A stretch of DNA of 64,000 nt from Dehalococcoidia bacterium. GTDB lineage: Bacteria > Chloroflexota > Dehalococcoidia > SZUA-161 > SpSt-899. Shown in pieces: positions 11,933 through 19,429 of the stretch. Location: NCBI GenBank assembly GCA_046545575.1, contig JBKGZM010000004.1, positions 2,521 through 66,520 on the forward strand. Reading direction: 5' to 3'. Both the position numbers and the translations under genes were made by a program. How positions within the stretch are numbered: the first letter of the stretch is position 1; each line of letters opens with the position of its first letter. The notes beneath the pieces were generated by a model. That model did no database searches and was not told the DNA's origin. It worked only from the letters and a program-made list of their open reading frames with translations.

Positions 11933-12544
11933 ATGCCCTCTACGTTCCCCTCTCTTTTTGACCCTCAAAAAGCCACTCAAGCCTTGAACTTCCTGGCCCG
12001 GAAGGCCGGCGGCCGGATTAATAGAATGAAGGCACTAAAGCTATTATATTTTGCTGATCGCTACCATCTGCGGAAGTATGGTCGCCTGATTACCAAGGAT
12101 GATTATTTTGCCATGTATCATGGGCCAGTTCCCTCTGGCACGAAGGATATCTCTGAATTTAGCAACGTCGTGAGCGAAAAGGATGAAAAATATGCCTCCC
12201 GATATATTGCCACCGTTGAGCGGTATGATATCAGATCAGTCGAATCCCCCGACCTGGAGGTCTTTTCCGATTCTGACATAGAGGCGCTGGACTTTACCTG
12301 GAATAACTTTGGGCACCTGGATCAATTTGCACTGGCAGATCTCACCCACAAATATCCTGAGTGGCAAAAGCACCAGCACTCCTTGCAGGATGAATCGACG
12401 AAGAGGGTCGACATGGTCATTGAGGATTTCCTTAATGATCCAGTTGATGATGTGAACCGATGTTACGATTTAGATGCCGAGGAAAGGGAAGCCCTGAGGG
12501 AGGAACTCAAAGAGACTGCCGAAATTGAGAGACTTTTGGGATAG
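11933..12544 (+). CDS. Panacea (SocA/DUF4065) domain antitoxin
   Basis: KALKLLYFADR, AMYHGPVPS (GPV motif), LADLTHKYPEW; RBS aaggagg; extended -10 TGgTAAAAT at 11892-11900. Confidence 0.85.
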   Translation: MPSTFPSLFDPQKATQALNFLARKAGGRINRMKALKLLYFADRYHLRKYGRLITKDDYFAMYHGPVPSGTKDISEFSNVVSEKDEKYASRYIATVERYDIRSVESPDLEVFSDSDIEALDFTWNNFGHLDQFALADLTHKYPEWQKHQHSLQDESTKRVDMVIEDFLNDPVDDVNRCYDLDAEEREALREELKETAEIERLLG

Positions 12545-12549
12545 GAATA

Positions 12550-12990
12550 GTGGATTTTCCCCCGGAGATTGCAGTTCGTGCTGTCCTCAAGCGAGGCGCT
12601 GTCTTTTATTTTGAAGAGGAGACGCTATCCTCCAGTGAACCACATTACTTTATAGTGATCAACACTGACCCCAAGACAGACGAAATTCTCCTGCTCGTGT
12701 GCTGTTCCTCAAGAACTAACAAGGTCAAACGCAGAAATTGCCCTGAGGAAACGCTGGTGGAAATCTCACCTGAAGAATATCCGGACTTCAGAACAGGGTC
12801 TATAGTGAATTGCAATAACGTCTGGGAGAAGAAAACCTCCGAGCTTGTAGGGAAATATTCTCAGGGGAAACTCAAGTTGAAAGACACAATGAGTGCAGAA
12901 CTTGTTGATAAACTGCAGGCAGCTGTGATAGCAAGTTCGGTGGTTGAGCGGAGGATACAAGCGATGCTTAATCCCCCCTCAAACCCTTAG
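12550..12990 (+). CDS. putative toxin, PemK/MazF-like fold
   Basis: 5 nt downstream of the Panacea gene; LKRGAVFYF...HYFIVIN...SIVNCNNV...MSAELVDKLQAAV follows the PemK/MazF pattern. Confidence 0.6.
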   Translation: MDFPPEIAVRAVLKRGAVFYFEEETLSSSEPHYFIVINTDPKTDEILLLVCCSSRTNKVKRRNCPEETLVEISPEEYPDFRTGSIVNCNNVWEKKTSELVGKYSQGKLKLKDTMSAELVDKLQAAVIASSVVERRIQAMLNPPSNP

Positions 12991-13074
12991 CAGATCCTCC
13001 ACCAACCTGCGTCTGGTCAAACGCTGATGGTATCTGGTCTTATTCGAGTTTGGCTTAACAGGCTGGCCAGCATA

Positions 13075-13176
13075 CATCGAAAGGCCGTGAAAGCCTGGAA
13101 CGGCGAAGGCAATTTCTCGGACTTGCTGCTGGCCGCCCGCGAGGTCACGCTTTCCGGCGGTGAATTGCATTCAATT
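13075..13176 (+). pseudogene. decayed copy of the purB 3' segment
   Basis: HRKAVKAWNGEGNFSDLLLAAREVTLSGGELHSI vs PurB QRNAMKAWQGEGNFLDLLLADPEVTLSDDELRSI (10347-10448), 24/34 aa identical. Confidence 0.88.
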
Positions 13177-13275
13177 GCCACTGGCACCCAAGAAACGGCA
13201 GTGCAATCTTCGAGCGGGTGGGACTGGAGTGAGCAGGCTACCACAATGTCATTCTGGACAGCGGTGAACTGTATG

Positions 13276-13309
13276 GGGTAGGGATGGCCGACGTCGGCCA
13301 TCCCTACCC
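13276..13309. repeat. perfect 34-bp palindrome (GTAG-type REP)
   Basis: gggtagggatggccgac|gtcggccatccctaccc. Confidence 0.85.
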
Positions 13310-13386
13310 GAACACTTTGCTATTTATACTTCAGTGCTTACTCCCTCACTCGTCATTCCGCCCCGCCTTTGGCGGATAAACTCCAA

Positions 13387-13428
13387 CCGGAATCCAGATG
13401 TAGGGACAGGTCTTTAGACCTGTCCGAA
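13387..13428 (+). repeat. 42-bp direct repeat copy 2
   Basis: Identical to 10543-10584. Confidence 0.9.
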
Positions 13429-13632
13429 GAAAGCGGTGTTTAATACCGGAATTTCTTTGCCCTGATAATCCTCAGGGACATCCTCCATGACTATTATTTT
13501 GTAGGCATCCCGCAAATTCTCCTCTAGTTCCTCCACTGTTTCGCCCTGGGTCATAATTTCGGGATACTCAATAAGTTTGCCCAGCCAGAAGGTGTCACCT
13601 CTCCAATATACCATCGTAAGGCTCTTATCCAT
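13414..13632 (-). CDS. HicB-family antitoxin (orphan; stop codon supplied by the REP)
   Basis: YPEIMTQGETVEELEENLRDAY HicB motif; RBS ggaggg; no HicA adjacent. Confidence 0.75.
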   Translation of the reverse strand: MDKSLTMVYWRGDTFWLGKLIEYPEIMTQGETVEELEENLRDAYKIIVMEDVPEDYQGKEIPVLNTAFFGQV

Positions 13633-13824
13633 GTTTCCCCTCCCTGAATACCGTAGCTAAGTGCATATCAATCTTCGTCACAGTATTCTATTATATATCG
13701 TTGTACTGAGTGCTTACAAAATACCCCACAAGGTTAACAGATGTCAATATCTCTCGGCGAATTTGCTGCGCCGATATTCGATTACAACTGCCCAAGTTAG
13801 ATTTCGGGACTTCCGATGATGGAT

Positions 13825-13853
13825 TTGACAAGCTGCCAAGATGGCGGTAGAAT
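13825..13853 (+). promoter_or_regulatory. sigma70 promoter of the DRT3 operon
   Basis: TTGACA (13825-13830), 17 nt, TAGAAT (13848-13853). Confidence 0.8.
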
Positions 13854-13905
13854 TTACAAAAATACAAACGTAATTCAATAACTCATGTTAGGCCTAGGAT
13901 CTGGG

Positions 13906-15237
13906 ATGTTAGATCAATCTTTTTCTGCTGCCAGTTTCAGGAGAATTCTGGATCAAGAGAATAGAAAGGGCGTTTATTTGGAAGGACGGTATTTCCCAAA
14001 TACTGTTGCGGTAACGGAGCAAATAAAGCAGTGTAACGCAGACATCAAAGAGAAGAAAAAGTCCAGCAGTGTCCCCCAAGATGAAATAGATACGCTGAAA
14101 GAAAAACTGGATAATCTGAAGCAAACCAAAGAAGATTTGCTTATGAAAGAACTCCAGAACTTAAGTGATAGGGTTGTAGACCGAAGTTTCGAAATTAAAC
14201 TAAAGAGAACAGATATTCCCAATAGCAAACCAATTTATACCCCTCAAGATACCCCCGAGCACTATTTTTCCATGAAACAGCTGCAACGCAATGTTGCTAA
14301 TTTATTCGGAGTAAAGCAGGCAAATAGGTCTTCCATTGTGGCTCAAGTTAAGGCACTACTTAATGACAGGTTCCCCAAATACGTTGTGAGAATGGACATT
14401 AAAGATTTCTACGAGAGTATTCCTCATCAATCTTTACTTGAGAGAATTAATGGCGACAACCTGCTGACTCCGTTTTCCAGAAAACTTTTACGACAAATCT
14501 TGAATGAGTATAAAGCAAAATCAGGGAGCGTTACAGGAATTCCTAGGGGGATTGGTGTTAGTGCATATTTGGCTGAGTTATATATGAGGGATGTCGACAA
14601 AGATATCAAAGCATTGCCTGGAGTTACGTATTATGCACGGTATGTCGACGATATAGTGATAATATTCACTCCGACGGCTACCCTCTATAATGTAGATTTA
14701 ATAGACGAACTAAAGTCGATTGTGGGGAAGAAGTATAAATTGGCACTAAATAGTGACAAAACACACGTCTTCGATCTGAGAAACGGGGACTCGTCTCACG
14801 AGTTTGACTATCTGGGATATAAGATTCATTTCGGGAATGGTGAGATCAAGACTAAACTCACAAAGAGAAAGACTGCTAAATACAAAAAACGCATTAGCTC
14901 TGCGTTTGATGAATATGTAAGACTTTCGAGATTCGATGAGAAAAAAGCTCGCAAGCTATTGGTAAAAAGGGTGAGATACTTGACCGGGAACACTAGTCTT
15001 TTAAATAACAAAAACAATATCCTCGTTGGTATTTATTACTCCAATAGTGAGCTGACCGACAATACAGACTTAATTGGAGTAGATAGATATTTAGATAATG
15101 AGATCAACAAAAAAGTTAGTCTTCAACAAGTAAAGCAGCGCTTAAGAAAATATAGTTTTAATGAAGGTTTTGAAACCAAAAAATTTTCCCCTTTCACAGC
15201 ACAAGATTTAAAGAGCATAGTAAAAGTATGGAAATAG
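13906..15237 (+). CDS. drt3a: antiviral reverse transcriptase Drt3a (UG3-type)
   Basis: RT motifs DIKDFYESI, GIPRGIGVSAYLAELYM, YARYVDDIVII; N-terminal MLDQSFS...ENRKG; AT-rich; directly upstream of a second RT. ORF open from 13885, ATG 13906 preferred. Confidence 0.88.
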   Translation: MLDQSFSAASFRRILDQENRKGVYLEGRYFPNTVAVTEQIKQCNADIKEKKKSSSVPQDEIDTLKEKLDNLKQTKEDLLMKELQNLSDRVVDRSFEIKLKRTDIPNSKPIYTPQDTPEHYFSMKQLQRNVANLFGVKQANRSSIVAQVKALLNDRFPKYVVRMDIKDFYESIPHQSLLERINGDNLLTPFSRKLLRQILNEYKAKSGSVTGIPRGIGVSAYLAELYMRDVDKDIKALPGVTYYARYVDDIVIIFTPTATLYNVDLIDELKSIVGKKYKLALNSDKTHVFDLRNGDSSHEFDYLGYKIHFGNGEIKTKLTKRKTAKYKKRISSAFDEYVRLSRFDEKKARKLLVKRVRYLTGNTSLLNNKNNILVGIYYSNSELTDNTDLIGVDRYLDNEINKKVSLQQVKQRLRKYSFNEGFETKKFSPFTAQDLKSIVKVWK

Positions 15238-15247
15238 GATTATCGAA

Positions 15248-17284
15248 GTGAAACGAAGAAAAACAACAATTACTAATAAAAAAGAGCGAGTGATTCTTTC
15301 TGATGTATTACCTTATGAAATCCCCGCCATCTTTTCGAATCGGCATCTCTATGATTTTCTTGTAGAGAACAAAATTAAAATAAACGGCGATGCAATCACA
15401 TGGGGGGAAAATACTCCTTTTCTTCCGGACATAGTGAAGCTAATCTTTGGACTTCAGGAAAGGGCCCCAGTTTCAGGCAGTCAAATCAAAATAGGGGCCA
15501 AAGATATGAAGGCTATACCTTTTACATACAAAGTATCTCACAAGGAAGATGATTTTAGAGAATTAACCATAATCCATCCTAAGAATCAACTCGCGATGAT
15601 AGAGTTCTATGAAAAATATGAGGCTTTGATCCTGTATTACTGTGATGTCAGTCCTTTCTCTATTAGGAAGCCACACAAAGTAGCAAAGTTCACATATCGC
15701 AAAGACAAGACGCATTTTGAGAATCTAGCTCATGACCACGAACATAAGGCGGTCGAAGAATTTGATAAGGAGTATGAAAACCTTAAGACATATTTCGTCT
15801 ACAAAAGTTTTAGTAACGTCTATAACTTCTATGAGTCCTATAAATACCACAGATGTGAAAAGAGATACAATCGACTCTTCAAGTTTGATATTTCAAAATG
15901 CTTCGACAGTATTTATACACATTCTGTTACTTGGTCGTTATTAAATAAAATCATCGTAAAAGATAACATCGAAGCCTCAAAAGGCACTTTTGGCGGCAAG
16001 TTCGACAATCTTATGCAGAATTTAAACTACGGAGAAACAAATGGGATAGTCATTGGCCCCGAGTTTTCGAGGATATTTGCTGAAATGATCCTTCAGCAAA
16101 TAGATTATTCAGTATTGTGCACTTTAGAAGAGAAGGGGATACTTCACAAGACAGATTACGAGATATTCCGCTATGTGGATGACTTCTTCGTTTTTTATAA
16201 TGAAGAAAAAACAAAAGAGGCTATTCTTGAAGCGTATCGATTACAACTAAAAGAGTACAAGATGTATATAAACGACTTGAAGTCTTTCTTGCTTGACAAA
16301 CCAATAATTACAGGGCTAACCAGAGCAAAACAGCAAATATCCGATCTCATCAATGATAAACTCTCGTTTAGGCCATTAAGTAAGAACAAAACCACGGATG
16401 AGGCGGAAGAAGAGCAATATTCCTTTTATGTTAGTTCTAATAAGCTAATTACTAAGTTCAAGGCAATCATCAAAGAGACAGAAGTGATCTATAAGGACAT
16501 TCTGAACTACACCTTGGCGTGTGTTGATCGAAAAGTTCTCAAACTCATTAACTCGTATAACAAACTCAGTGCTGAAGACAGAAAAGAGCAAGAACCCAAA
16601 ATCACAAAGGCAGTCATAGAAATACTTGATTTTACTTTCTTTCTGTACTCAGTCTCTCCAAGGGTCAATACTACTATCAAACTTTGTATGATTATAAGCA
16701 AGCTTACTAAGTTTTCAAGGATCAAGGGAAACTTCAATTACGACAATAAGCATCTGATACTCAAAAAGATATACGACGATATTTTCTTGGTCTTAAGAAA
16801 GAACAAAAGCTCTGAGCATATTCAGGTCGAGACACTCTACTTGCTTATAGCATTGAAGGACCTCGGAAGGGAGTATCGGCTCGATGAGGGTTCCCTAAGT
16901 AAATACTTCGATATAGATCTCGAAGAGAAAAGGTGCAAGAACCTTAACTACTTCTCAATTATCGTTCTGCTATTCTACATTGAGAACAAGACGAGGTATA
17001 CCAAAACTCGGAATATTTTAAAGTCCTATATAATGAGCAAGTTTAAAGAAGCCAGCGAATATAATAGGCACAAGGCCGGCGAACTGACACTTCTACTTTT
17101 TGATTTGTTGGCGTGTCCATTCATTGATGAGCTTTTTAAGAGATCTCTTTTGCTCCTTTATGGGATCAAGGATCCGTCAACACAAACTGGGATAATCCAG
17201 CATAGAAAATTCTGGTTCACGAAGTGGACAGATTTCGATTTTGGCAAAGAACTTGACGCCAAGAAGAGCCAGGAAGTATACTAA
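15248..17284 (+). CDS. drt3b: antiviral reverse transcriptase Drt3b (UG8-type)
   Basis: N-terminal SDVLPYEIP; RT motifs FDISKCFDSIYTH, GIVIGPEFSRIFAE, FRYVDDFFVF; long helical C-terminus; GTG start 10 nt after drt3a. Confidence 0.88.
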   Translation: MKRRKTTITNKKERVILSDVLPYEIPAIFSNRHLYDFLVENKIKINGDAITWGENTPFLPDIVKLIFGLQERAPVSGSQIKIGAKDMKAIPFTYKVSHKEDDFRELTIIHPKNQLAMIEFYEKYEALILYYCDVSPFSIRKPHKVAKFTYRKDKTHFENLAHDHEHKAVEEFDKEYENLKTYFVYKSFSNVYNFYESYKYHRCEKRYNRLFKFDISKCFDSIYTHSVTWSLLNKIIVKDNIEASKGTFGGKFDNLMQNLNYGETNGIVIGPEFSRIFAEMILQQIDYSVLCTLEEKGILHKTDYEIFRYVDDFFVFYNEEKTKEAILEAYRLQLKEYKMYINDLKSFLLDKPIITGLTRAKQQISDLINDKLSFRPLSKNKTTDEAEEEQYSFYVSSNKLITKFKAIIKETEVIYKDILNYTLACVDRKVLKLINSYNKLSAEDRKEQEPKITKAVIEILDFTFFLYSVSPRVNTTIKLCMIISKLTKFSRIKGNFNYDNKHLILKKIYDDIFLVLRKNKSSEHIQVETLYLLIALKDLGREYRLDEGSLSKYFDIDLEEKRCKNLNYFSIIVLLFYIENKTRYTKTRNILKSYIMSKFKEASEYNRHKAGELTLLLFDLLACPFIDELFKRSLLLLYGIKDPSTQTGIIQHRKFWFTKWTDFDFGKELDAKKSQEVY

Positions 17285-17289
17285 CACCA

Positions 17290-17405
17290 GAATGCTCCGT
17301 CCAAATTAATAGCCATAGCAATATGGCTCACACACAAGCATTCGCTTTGGTTTCAGATACAATGAGATCAAGGCAATTAAAGCGGCAGGGACGGGCCGCT
17401 TTTTT
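17290..17405 (+). ncRNA. DRT3-associated structured ncRNA with ACACAC tract
   Basis: Stems gaatgct/agcattc; agccata-GCAA-tatggct; 12-bp stem with 3 G-U pairs (17344-17374); terminator-like aagcggc/gccgctt plus T-run; unpaired CACACACA at 17329-17336. Confidence 0.8.
17379..17405 (+). terminator. intrinsic terminator / 3' stem of the ncRNA
   Basis: aaagcggc-agggacgg-gccgcttt followed by a T-run. Confidence 0.7.
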
Positions 17406-17539
17406 ATTAACTTACCCCCGAATAATTTTCCCAGTGACTGACCTTCACCCAAAATCCCCAAAAATATTGTATTGTATCCTAAAGTGTGCTAACATATCCT
17501 CGCTGAAATTTCGCGCGAAAGGGGGTGATGTCCTAACTT

Positions 17540-17731
17540 ATGGACCCTGATTATTTGCTATCAACAGAAGAAGTAGGCGAAATCCTGAAGGTCAGTAAAG
17601 TGACCATCCAGCGGTGGTGCCACGAAGGCAAGATACCGGCGGCGAAGATCGGAAAATCATATCGTATAAACAAGGACGACCTTGACAGATGGTTCAAGGG
17701 AAAGCTCCTGGAGAATGCGGGCTTTAGTTAG
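17540..17731 (+). CDS. excisionase-like helix-turn-helix (HTH_17) protein
   Basis: LLSTEEVGEILKVSKVTIQRWCHEGKIPAAKIGKSYRI; RBS gggggtga. Confidence 0.85.
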   Translation: MDPDYLLSTEEVGEILKVSKVTIQRWCHEGKIPAAKIGKSYRINKDDLDRWFKGKLLENAGFS

Positions 17732-17747
17732 CAATTAAGAAAAGGAG

Positions 17748-18116
17748 GTGGGACCAATGCACCTGATTATCGAAGGATATGGAGGTGATATCCAGAAAAT
17801 AAGGGACACAAACTTAATCTACGAATTTCTCGACAATTGTCCCGACGAAATTAACATGACAAAGGTTTCTACTCCCCAGGTCTCCACTTATGAAGGCTCC
17901 TCACCCGACGAGACCGGGGTCTCCGGATTTGTTCTCCTCGCTGAAAGCCACGTCAGTATTCACATTCTACCCGGTCAATCTTCCCTGAACATCGACCTGT
18001 TCTCCTGCAAGGAATTCAAACCTGAAGACGCTATCAAACTCCTGAAGGAAAGGTTTGGATTAAGCGAGATCAGAAGCTATCTCCTCAACCGTCCTGAATC
18101 AGGAATAGAGGTATAG
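17748..18116 (+). CDS. speD: S-adenosylmethionine decarboxylase proenzyme (pyruvoyl-dependent, SpeD family)
   Basis: HLIIEGYG, GVSGFVLLAESHVSIH self-cleavage motif, IDLFSC. Confidence 0.85.
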   Translation: MGPMHLIIEGYGGDIQKIRDTNLIYEFLDNCPDEINMTKVSTPQVSTYEGSSPDETGVSGFVLLAESHVSIHILPGQSSLNIDLFSCKEFKPEDAIKLLKERFGLSEIRSYLLNRPESGIEV

Positions 18117-18277
18117 AATCATTAGTTGTACGTGCTCTAGTAAGCGCACCAGTACACCAGTACACCAGCATTGTGGTGGTATGAGGCATGTGCTCTCATC
18201 CATCGCAGGCTGATGTCATTTAGAGTAATATCCGCCTGCGGCGGATGCCTCAGGAACGAAAAAGAGGTTGGGGATTT

Positions 18278-19429
18278 ATGAAGAACACCATAGTATCAAC
18301 CCTCAGTGAAAATATTGTTGAGCGTGTAGAGCATTTTTCTGCATCCAGAAAGACGCCGCACCTTGTGATGGATACGCATACGATCCGGGATAAATTCAAA
18401 CAGTGCCAGTCCGCCTTAGGCGGACTTGACAGCCACAAGCAGACACGCTTGTTCTACGCGGTCAAAACGAATTCCCACAAGCGCATCGTGGATATCATGG
18501 ACGAGCTGGGGGCTGATTTTGAGGTGTCCTCGGAAGGCGAATTGCGGCCGTTGCTCAAGCGCGGTATATCGCCGCAAAGGATTATATCCAGCAATCCTAT
18601 CAAGAGTATTCCGTTTATTCAAGAGGCTTACGAGGCAGGCGTGGAATACTTTGCCTTCGACTCCGACGACGAAATCGACAAGCTGGAAAAGTTCGCCCCC
18701 GGCAGCAATGTCTACGTCCGGCTGGTCGTCTCCAACAAGGGCAGCCAGTGGCCTCTGGAGAGGAAGTTCGGTGTGGAAACGGAGGAGGCTGTCAGACTGC
18801 TCGTGAAGGCTTCTGAACGCGACCTCAATCCCTGCGGTATAGCGTTTCATGTCGGCTCGCAGTGTATCGATGAGAGTTCGTGGGTTGAGGCGATACGGAA
18901 AAGCAGACAAGTGTGGGACATGGCAAGGGAAGAAGGGGTGGAACTGACCATGCTGAACCTGGGAGGTGGATTCCCCATTGAATATAGGACCGACTCCATC
19001 CCCACATGCAGTCGCATTGGAGAGGAGATAAACAGGACACTAAACGAGGAGTTCCCTGAAGGCGTCGAGGTCTTCGTCGAACCCGGCCGGGCCTTCGTCG
19101 GCGAAGCGGGTGTTCTCGTGGCCACCGTTATCGCCAAGGCCAAACGCGACGGACAGGACTGGGTTTACCTGGATATCGGCGTTTTCAATGGCCTGATGGA
19201 AAGCGTTGGCGGTATCGATTACCCGGTCATGCTCAACAGGGATGCTCCGCTGGGTAAATACGTGCTGGCAGGACCCGCCTGTGACAGCTTCGATGTTATC
19301 TCAAACGAGGTCGTTATGCCCGAGCCTGAAATCGGCGATAGGGTATACATTCCATCCGCAGGGGCCTATACCACCGCATACGCATCTCGCTTCAACGGTT
19401 TCCCTGTCCCAAAGACCTACTTTATCTGA
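18278..19429 (+). CDS. type III PLP-dependent ornithine/lysine decarboxylase
   Basis: FYAVKTN (PLP Lys), KFG, FHVGSQ, NLGGGFP, EPGR, GPACDSFD, GAYT; start at ATG 18278. Confidence 0.9.
   Translation: MKNTIVSTLSENIVERVEHFSASRKTPHLVMDTHTIRDKFKQCQSALGGLDSHKQTRLFYAVKTNSHKRIVDIMDELGADFEVSSEGELRPLLKRGISPQRIISSNPIKSIPFIQEAYEAGVEYFAFDSDDEIDKLEKFAPGSNVYVRLVVSNKGSQWPLERKFGVETEEAVRLLVKASERDLNPCGIAFHVGSQCIDESSWVEAIRKSRQVWDMAREEGVELTMLNLGGGFPIEYRTDSIPTCSRIGEEINRTLNEEFPEGVEVFVEPGRAFVGEAGVLVATVIAKAKRDGQDWVYLDIGVFNGLMESVGGIDYPVMLNRDAPLGKYVLAGPACDSFDVISNEVVMPEPEIGDRVYIPSAGAYTTAYASRFNGFPVPKTYFI

Follow-up and report, generated by a model that had tools for sequence, protein, structure and literature searches.

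A probable DRT3 non-coding RNA with an exposed ACACAC tract and a covarying pseudoknot downstream of drt3b in a Dehalococcoidia bacterium

The interval 17290-17405 (+) of a 64,000-nt stretch of Dehalococcoidia DNA (from here: the window, meaning the whole stretch analysed) very probably encodes the non-coding RNA (ncRNA) of a DRT3 (UG3 + UG8) system, with the fold, the pseudoknot and the copying mechanism described below. All five helices of this RNA, the pseudoknot included, covary in 63 homologues. Our additions are comparative, namely the conservation of the ACACAC tract, the covariation of the five helices and the pseudoknot; the template idea itself was published in 2026.

Background

Structured RNAs downstream of UG8 reverse transcriptases (RTs) were reported by Mestre et al. 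2022 in 20 groups, of which groups 1-17 have an exposed 'CACACA'-like motif at variable distance (PMC9226505). For the DRT3 system of E. coli, it was reported that DRT3a copies the conserved 5'-ACACAC-3' loop of the ncRNA into poly(dTdG) (Wang et al. 2026 preprint, PMC13174585; also PMC13434031) and that DRT3b needs no nucleic-acid template to make poly(dCdA) (PMC13174585). Mutation of the ACACAC motif abolished both the product and defence in this system, and read-through into the adjoining stem-loop 4 truncated the products (PMC13174585). As relayed by citing papers (PMC13434031, PMC13314766, PMC13213688), Deng et al. 2026 (Science) described a 6:6:6 complex, an RNA of ~130 nt and the placement of A108CACAC113 in the Drt3a active site, and proposed a 'zipper head'.

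An earlier note on the window, made from the letters of the DNA, had proposed that 17290-17405 folds into an ncRNA with an unpaired AC template, a GNRA-capped hairpin as its boundary and a long-range pseudoknot. Here, we followed up this proposal by homology searches, RNA folding and a comparison of related loci from many phyla.

Methods

A profile of 24 Drt3b proteins was searched against one-genome-per-species contigs and yielded 511 related loci. The comparison set consisted of the best 80 of these 511 Drt3b loci plus L009 from the first scan, giving 81 loci. Alignment of 25 diverse downstream regions by MAFFT (A2) misaligned divergent groups and was replaced by model-based alignments. The covariance model R1 was built from 21 sequences and contained four nested helices only, with the pseudoknot left out. 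A second model, R2, led to an alignment of 67 sequences that was used for the fixed-window and geometry counts.

Results

The window encodes two RTs in the same orientation, drt3a (13885-15237, +; UG3, class 2 RT, 450 aa) and drt3b (15248-17284, +; UG8, class 1 RT, 678 aa; stop codon TAA at 17282-84). PADLOC identified the 450-aa ORF as Drt3a (E 7.2e-120) and the 678-aa ORF as Drt3b (E 1.6e-207), and the Pfam domain RVT_1 was found in both products (E 6e-19 for Drt3a). For both proteins, the nearest solved structures are those of the E. coli DRT3 complex (9Z6Y/9Z6Z). Drt3a matched 9z6y_A, annotated as 'Drt3a', with an E value of 4.5e-24, with YVDD aligned and the catalytic motif kept, and Drt3b matched 9z6y_H with an E value of 6e-68. 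Moreover, E24 and R275 of the window Drt3b align with E26 and R253 of the solved Drt3b, which were named as base-selecting residues (PMC13213688).

The last residue of Drt3b is an invariant tyrosine, Y678 in the window; by its position it fits the published tyrosine near the Drt3b C-terminus to which a role in protein priming was assigned (PMC13174585). The Drt3b of E. coli E24377A likewise ends in tyrosine (locus L101, 4300-4404). The window thus holds the parts of a DRT3 system, i.e. a UG3 RT with its catalytic motif, a UG8 RT downstream of it and, on the same strand, a structured RNA with an exposed ACACAC. By homology, Drt3a would be the enzyme that copies the ncRNA template. For the window locus, functional readings of this kind are drawn from homology to the E. 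coli proteins that were studied, with which its own proteins share 20-35% identity.

Upstream of the operon, the region 11933-12990 (+) encodes a protein of 203 aa with a SocA/Panacea antitoxin domain (Pfam E 2e-24), next to which lies a 146-aa ORF without a family; the two may form a toxin-antitoxin pair that belongs to this defence neighbourhood. Directly downstream of the operon (17540-19429, +) lies the gene for a 63-aa HTH_17 protein, which was also recognized by PADLOC as mad1 (E 4e-10), followed by genes for an S-adenosylmethionine decarboxylase and an Orn/DAP/Arg decarboxylase. These polyamine synthesis genes delimit the inserted defence genes. In the ~900-nt gap upstream of drt3a, a G+C-rich hairpin (13247-13326, -) matched the Rfam family Chloroflexi-1 below threshold (21.8 bits vs. 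a gathering score of 80, E 0.51), probably by chance.

The RNA interval begins 5 nt past the drt3b stop codon on the same (+) strand. RNAfold on 17285-17410 returned the same four nested helices as the minimum free energy (MFE) structure and as the centroid. The MFE of -41.9 kcal/mol compares with -23.6 +/- 3.2 kcal/mol for 200 dinucleotide shuffles (z -5.71), and none of the shuffles (0/200) was as stable. All pairings that had been claimed for 17290-17405 were found in the sequence where the earlier note had placed them.

In this fold, helix P1 closes the template domain by pairing GAATGCT (17290-17296, +) with AGCATTC (17337-17343, +), the latter strand forming the helix on the 3' side of the template. 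CCGTCC (17297-17302, +), the 5' strand of the pseudoknot, comes directly after the first P1 strand and is followed by an A-rich single-stranded linker, AAATTAAT (17303-17310, +), which is unpaired in the fold and whose A's are nearly invariant in alignment A3. The 7-bp hairpin AGCCATA-GCAA-TATGGCT (17311-17328, +) adjoins the template on its 5' side and is the candidate template-boundary anchor. The segment between this hairpin and the second P1 strand, CACACACA (17329-17336, +), is unpaired and contains ACACAC at 17330-17335.

Two hairpins follow on the same strand. P3 (17344-17374, +) is a 12-bp stem (17344-55/17363-74) that includes three G-U pairs (17346-17372, 17350-17368 and 17352-17366) and is capped by the loop GATACAA (17356-17362). 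Positions in this apical loop are near-invariant in alignment A3 and the stem covaries freely; the conservation of the loop hints that protein or RNA contacts it in a sequence-specific way within the complex. P4 (17379-17402, +), found by a scan for terminator-like hairpins, consists of 8 bp (17379-86/17395-402) and an 8-nt loop, AGGGACGG. The last six bases of this loop, GGACGG (17389-17394, +), form the 3' strand of the pseudoknot and adjoin the 3' strand of P4. With its G+C-rich stem and the T run behind it, P4 has the make-up of an intrinsic terminator, and the remaining T run (17403-17405, +), seen in the sequence and in the terminator scan, is the likely 3' end of the RNA.

A consensus scan detected a promoter-like element, TTGACG-18 nt-TATACT (17253-17282, +; 10/12 matches), inside the end of drt3b. 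It would start transcription at ~17289-90, corresponding to the first base of P1. The element overlaps the conserved Drt3b C-terminal codons and may be a by-product of protein conservation. No Rfam match was obtained over 17285-17410 even at E <= 10; the search covered 13000-18500 and returned chance-level matches only in the rest of this range.

At E <= 1e-5, the covariance model R1 had a + strand match directly behind drt3b in 63 sources, and at E <= 0.1 in 80/82 DRT3 sources. It detected a single copy in the genome from which the window comes. The 13 other R1 matches at E <= 1 overlapped terminators on the minus strand or fell elsewhere, and no match to R1 was obtained in L077, L086 or L006. 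A compact fold of ~115 nt that includes a pseudoknot was found after drt3b in Bacteroidota, Omnitrophota, Acidobacteriota, Nitrospirota, Alpha- and Gammaproteobacteria and others, as judged from record titles. The proposal of a structured ncRNA is thus upheld both by the fold (z -5.7) and by the model matches after drt3b in homologues.

In the alignment of 63 sequences, 89.4% of the cells were standard pairs, compared with 66.5% after shuffling (a value of 89.4% was reached by 0/500 shuffles) and 37-47% with slid partners, where such measures count sequences and not independent events, and kinship alone can beat shuffles without structure. Over the five helices, 38 of the 40 pairs changed on both sides. 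By helix, these were 6/7 pairs in P1, 7/7 in the 5' hairpin, 12/12 in P3 (89% of cells paired), 8/8 in P4 (97.6% of cells paired) and 5/6 in the pseudoknot. Register shifts in the alignments A5 and A6 score true pairings as unpaired (CAGTCC/GGACTG, CCAGA/TCTGG), and the counts are therefore conservative. The earlier note had named a covariance comparison of the regions downstream of drt3b homologues as one way to check its model; in this comparison the AC tract and the pairings proved to be conserved and CCGTCC/GGACGG covaried.

GGACGG in the P4 loop is the exact complement of CCGTCC at 17297-17302. An exact 6-nt complement to the P4 loop arose in 2.4% of 20,000 shuffles of 17290-17378. The single sequence supports the pseudoknot weakly, and its support comes from the comparison of homologues. 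For the pseudoknot alone (63 sequences), 90.3% of the cells were paired vs. 79.4% after shuffling (0/500 shuffles reached the observed value) and 35-55% with slid partners, and the covariation score was 0.407 vs. 0.217. The counts of pairs changed on both sides and of further pair types were no better than in shuffles, being reached by 69/500 and 171/500 of them, respectively.

We also compared fixed windows taken from the 67-sequence alignment, one comprising the nine bases that follow P1 and the other the P4 loop. At least 5 contiguous pairs were formed by cognate windows in 62/67 sequences and at least 6 in 51/67, compared with 32% and 13%, respectively, of 4,036 non-cognate combinations; the other 5/67 sequences had fewer than 5 pseudoknot pairs. 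The 67 sequences comprised 42 distinct strand/loop combinations. Complementarity was kept by pairs as unlike as CCGCTC/GAGCGG, CAGTCC/GGACTG, TTCGCTT/AAGCGAA and TCTGCC/GGCAGA, and further complementary strands and loops were TTCGTCAA/TTGGCGAG, CTGAC/GTCAG, CCGAT/ATCGG and CCAGAAA/TTTCTGG. A freer search for complementarity over all hairpins gave a score of at least 14 in 53/80 cognates vs. 25% of shuffles, a background too high to discriminate between them.

The geometry of the pseudoknot was recurrent as well. The P4 loop measured 8 nt in 56/67 sequences, the loop strand of the pseudoknot adjoined the 3' strand of P4 in 46/62 and was preceded by 1-2 unpaired bases in 48/62, and the 5' strand began directly after P1 in 47/62. 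A short loop segment crossing the deep groove, together with a new helix stacked on the hairpin stem, is the arrangement of an H-type pseudoknot. The constant 2 + 6 + 0 layout of the P4 loop fits such a stacked H-type pseudoknot, in which the new helix could stack on P4.

Covariation, the drop with slid partners and the excess of cognate over non-cognate pairing all favour CCGTCC/GGACGG, as the earlier note had read it from one sequence. Its suggestion that the terminator-like hairpin might also be a structural element holds too: the P4 loop covaries with 17297-17302, and in four Bacteroidales loci (L049, L053, L064 and L068) a separate, distinct terminator follows the hairpin that carries the pseudoknot strand, which argues that the P4-type hairpin is more than a terminator.

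The word 'pseudoknot' has 0 occurrences in PMC13174585, PMC13314766, PMC13213688, PMC9226505 (main text) and 10.64898/2026.06.29.735271, the texts that this count covers. Full texts containing both DRT3 and pseudoknot include PMC12596737, a DRT2 study, and PMC12632851, on DRT10, where the word refers to telomerase. Within this scope, we found no paper naming the pseudoknot of this DRT3 ncRNA, which is apparently undescribed, but Mestre 2022 S9-S12 and Wang 2026 S3 may already draw the secondary structure.

The hairpin on the 5' side of the template was present in 49/67 relatives and absent in 18/67. Where it is present, no more than 0-1 nt separate its base from ACACAC in 39/49, and its loop is GNRA in just 6/49. 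Hence, the GNRA cap that the earlier note had stressed is not conserved and is incidental. In the 18 relatives without the hairpin, a single-stranded linker of 9-17 nt leads from the pseudoknot strand to the template, with a length of 11 nt in 11/18. This set includes close relatives, with 57-64% Drt3b identity. The linker of hairpin-less loci (among them L010, L011, L013-L017, L019, L023, L025 and L026) is A/U-rich.

Two stem-loops anchored at their bases were reported to frame the template in DRT3a, DRT9, DRT2 and DRT10 (10.64898/2026.06.29.735271). The proposal of a template-boundary hairpin therefore stands in part: a stem-loop next to the template agrees with the 5' anchor described there, but the hairpin, being absent in 18/67 relatives, cannot be a universal boundary. 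In the hairpin-less relatives, the junction of P1 and pseudoknot together with the fixed linker would be the obvious boundary candidate.

ACACAC occurs within 200 nt past the drt3b stop codon in 80/81 loci (best 80 of 511 plus L009), which come from many phyla. Its distance from the stop codon is 24-54 nt in 74 loci and 75-131 nt in 5; the distance for L080 is unreliable. The motif was missing only at L077, whose match ends at residue 665 with just 150 nt left. As the template of the RNA, the unpaired AC tract was well chosen: it is single-stranded in the fold, it is found in 80/81 loci, and the template function was shown for the same motif in E. coli DRT3 (PMC13174585, PMC13434031). By analogy, the ACACAC of the window would be the template for poly(dTdG). 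The combination of an AC template with telomerase-like repeat addition was right, but had been reported before for the DRT3 system of E. coli.

In the E. coli locus L101, ACACAC lies 147 nt past the drt3b stop codon. Here, 130 nt ending 17 nt beyond the template fold as SL1-SL4, followed by the template near the 3' end, and neither R1 nor R2 has a match in this locus. The window RNA does not follow this E. coli-type layout, having one 5' hairpin and ~70 nt of structure after the template. A published covariance model, built from E. coli-like RNAs, recovered 32-41 RNAs of this type (PMC13174585). The compact fold therefore forms a separate structural class of this RNA and, going by record titles, is widespread.

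We also sought the same pseudoknot in Enterobacterales. Three loci (L090, L093 and L095) have instead a nested helix of 12-13 bp that joins the 5' end with the region just after the template and competes with the local terminator hairpin, and E. coli L101 is without a clear equivalent. A fourth Enterobacterales locus, L091, has the compact fold with the pseudoknot TCGTGC/GCATGA. L095 carries two ACACAC motifs. In four Flavobacterium loci (L067, L073, L082 and L085), an insertion of ~100 nt separates the pseudoknot strand from the template, and ACACAC lies 124-131 nt past the stop codon; these insertions identify the region upstream of the template as an expansion site.

Discussion

We propose that the RNA would be a + strand transcript, made together with the operon or started at the promoter-like site inside the end of drt3b, and would end at the P4 hairpin and its T run. 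P1 would close a small domain that holds the hairpin and the single-stranded ACACAC, with P3 and P4 downstream, and six of the eight P4 loop bases would pair with the strand after P1. P1 and the pseudoknot would together lock the template domain and the 3' hairpin to each other. Drt3a would grip the helices flanking ACACAC and use the AC repeats to make poly(dTdG), with a telomerase-like slip back once each short copy is finished. Drt3b would make poly(dCdA), and the resulting poly(dTdG)/poly(dCdA) duplex may drive abortive infection. For the window locus, the template role, the DNA products and defence are carried over from the experiments in E. coli. Judging from the anatomy of the RNA, the pseudoknot may hold the template domain in place within the ribonucleoprotein, and the 5' template boundary may be set by the hairpin or, where this is missing, by the pseudoknot together with a linker of fixed length.

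This boundary could be read differently. The hairpin at 17311-17328 might be an optional insertion, and the 5' limit of the template might be set by the distance to the P1/pseudoknot junction, which would serve as a ruler. Such a boundary by distance was reported for DRT10 (10.64898/2026.06.29.735271), and the lack of the hairpin in 18/67 sequences, close relatives included, and the linker of 11 nt in 11/18 of these point in the same direction. Nevertheless, we regard a ruler of this kind as doubtful, though quite possible, since the hairpin, where present, is placed with its base 0-1 nt from ACACAC in 39/49 and has a covarying stem, and since in the solved E. coli complex Drt3a was reported to contact the base of the stem-loop on the 5' side of the template (10.64898/2026.06.29.735271). 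We thus prefer the hairpin as the boundary where it exists.

Another alternative accepts the DRT3 ncRNA and ACACAC as its template but holds that CCGTCC/GGACGG is not formed in the working complex, the two strands being kept otherwise, e.g. by protein contacts, and their covariation reflecting shared ancestry. The 2.4% chance of a 6-nt complement in the window is not negligible, the two pair-count measures for the pseudoknot fall within the shuffles (69/500 and 171/500), and the portions of the DRT3 literature examined make no mention of a pseudoknot. Still, unrelated sequence pairs stay complementary at the same two places, cognate pairing clearly exceeds non-cognate pairing and slid partners fall to 35-55% paired. 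In addition, the model behind the alignment did not contain the pseudoknot, and the 2 + 6 + 0 layout is constant. We therefore consider it unlikely that the pseudoknot does not form. Even less can be said for the view that the interval is merely the 3' untranslated end of drt3b with an intrinsic terminator and without an RNA function, which we judge highly improbable. In favour of this view, a T run follows a terminator-like hairpin and Rfam has no match, but an invariant ACACAC (80/81 loci) and four covarying helices besides the terminator are unexpected for an untranslated tail, and the E. coli ncRNA downstream of drt3b was reported to be required for defence (PMC9226505, PMC13174585). A DRT3 ncRNA with a template and a pseudoknot is the reading that we retain.

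Beyond the window, one may speculate that a compact ncRNA serves most DRT3 systems apart from the E. coli clade, that its covarying H-type pseudoknot stacks the terminator hairpin by the template-closing helix and is needed for activity, and that in RNAs without the 5' hairpin the pseudoknot is the sole upstream structure, setting the boundary via the ~11-nt linker. We put this forward tentatively and expect that it may well not hold in this general form. If true, a telomerase-RNA-like core of template and pseudoknot would be present in most of these DRT3 systems. The solved E. coli RNA is not representative of the sampled loci. The pseudoknot and the optional 5' hairpin offer cheap mutants for studying how a dinucleotide template is held and bounded, with a bearing on the proposed mechanistic kinship between class 2 defence RTs and telomerase.

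Among the known systems, the window locus fits the description of the UG8-associated ncRNA groups of Mestre et al. 2022; these authors, however, guessed the 'CACACA' motif to be a binding site (PMC9226505). The ncRNA of E. coli DRT3 is alike in lying downstream of drt3b on the same strand, in exposing a single-stranded ACACAC between helices with a stem-loop directly 5' of it, and in having Drt3a and Drt3b as partners. It differs in measuring ~130 nt and in carrying the template at 108-113, after four stem-loops (PMC13434031), whereas in the window RNA the template lies 40 nt from the start of P1 with one 5' hairpin before it, and two hairpins and the pseudoknot come after it. The ncRNAs of DRT10 and DRT9 share with it a short internal template between two anchored stem-loops and the production of repeat or homopolymer cDNA by copying and resetting (PMC12632851, 10.64898/2026.06.29.735271). 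Unlike DRT3, they belong to the RT groups UG17 and UG28, have other template sequences and oligomers and act without a second RT.

The RNA is not a telomerase RNA, as its RTs are UG3/UG8 and not TERT and its repeat unit has two nucleotides. It does have a template with a flanking helix and a pseudoknot, and the resemblance is one of working principle only. In the window RNA, the pseudoknot joins the loop of the terminator hairpin to the strand that follows the closing helix.
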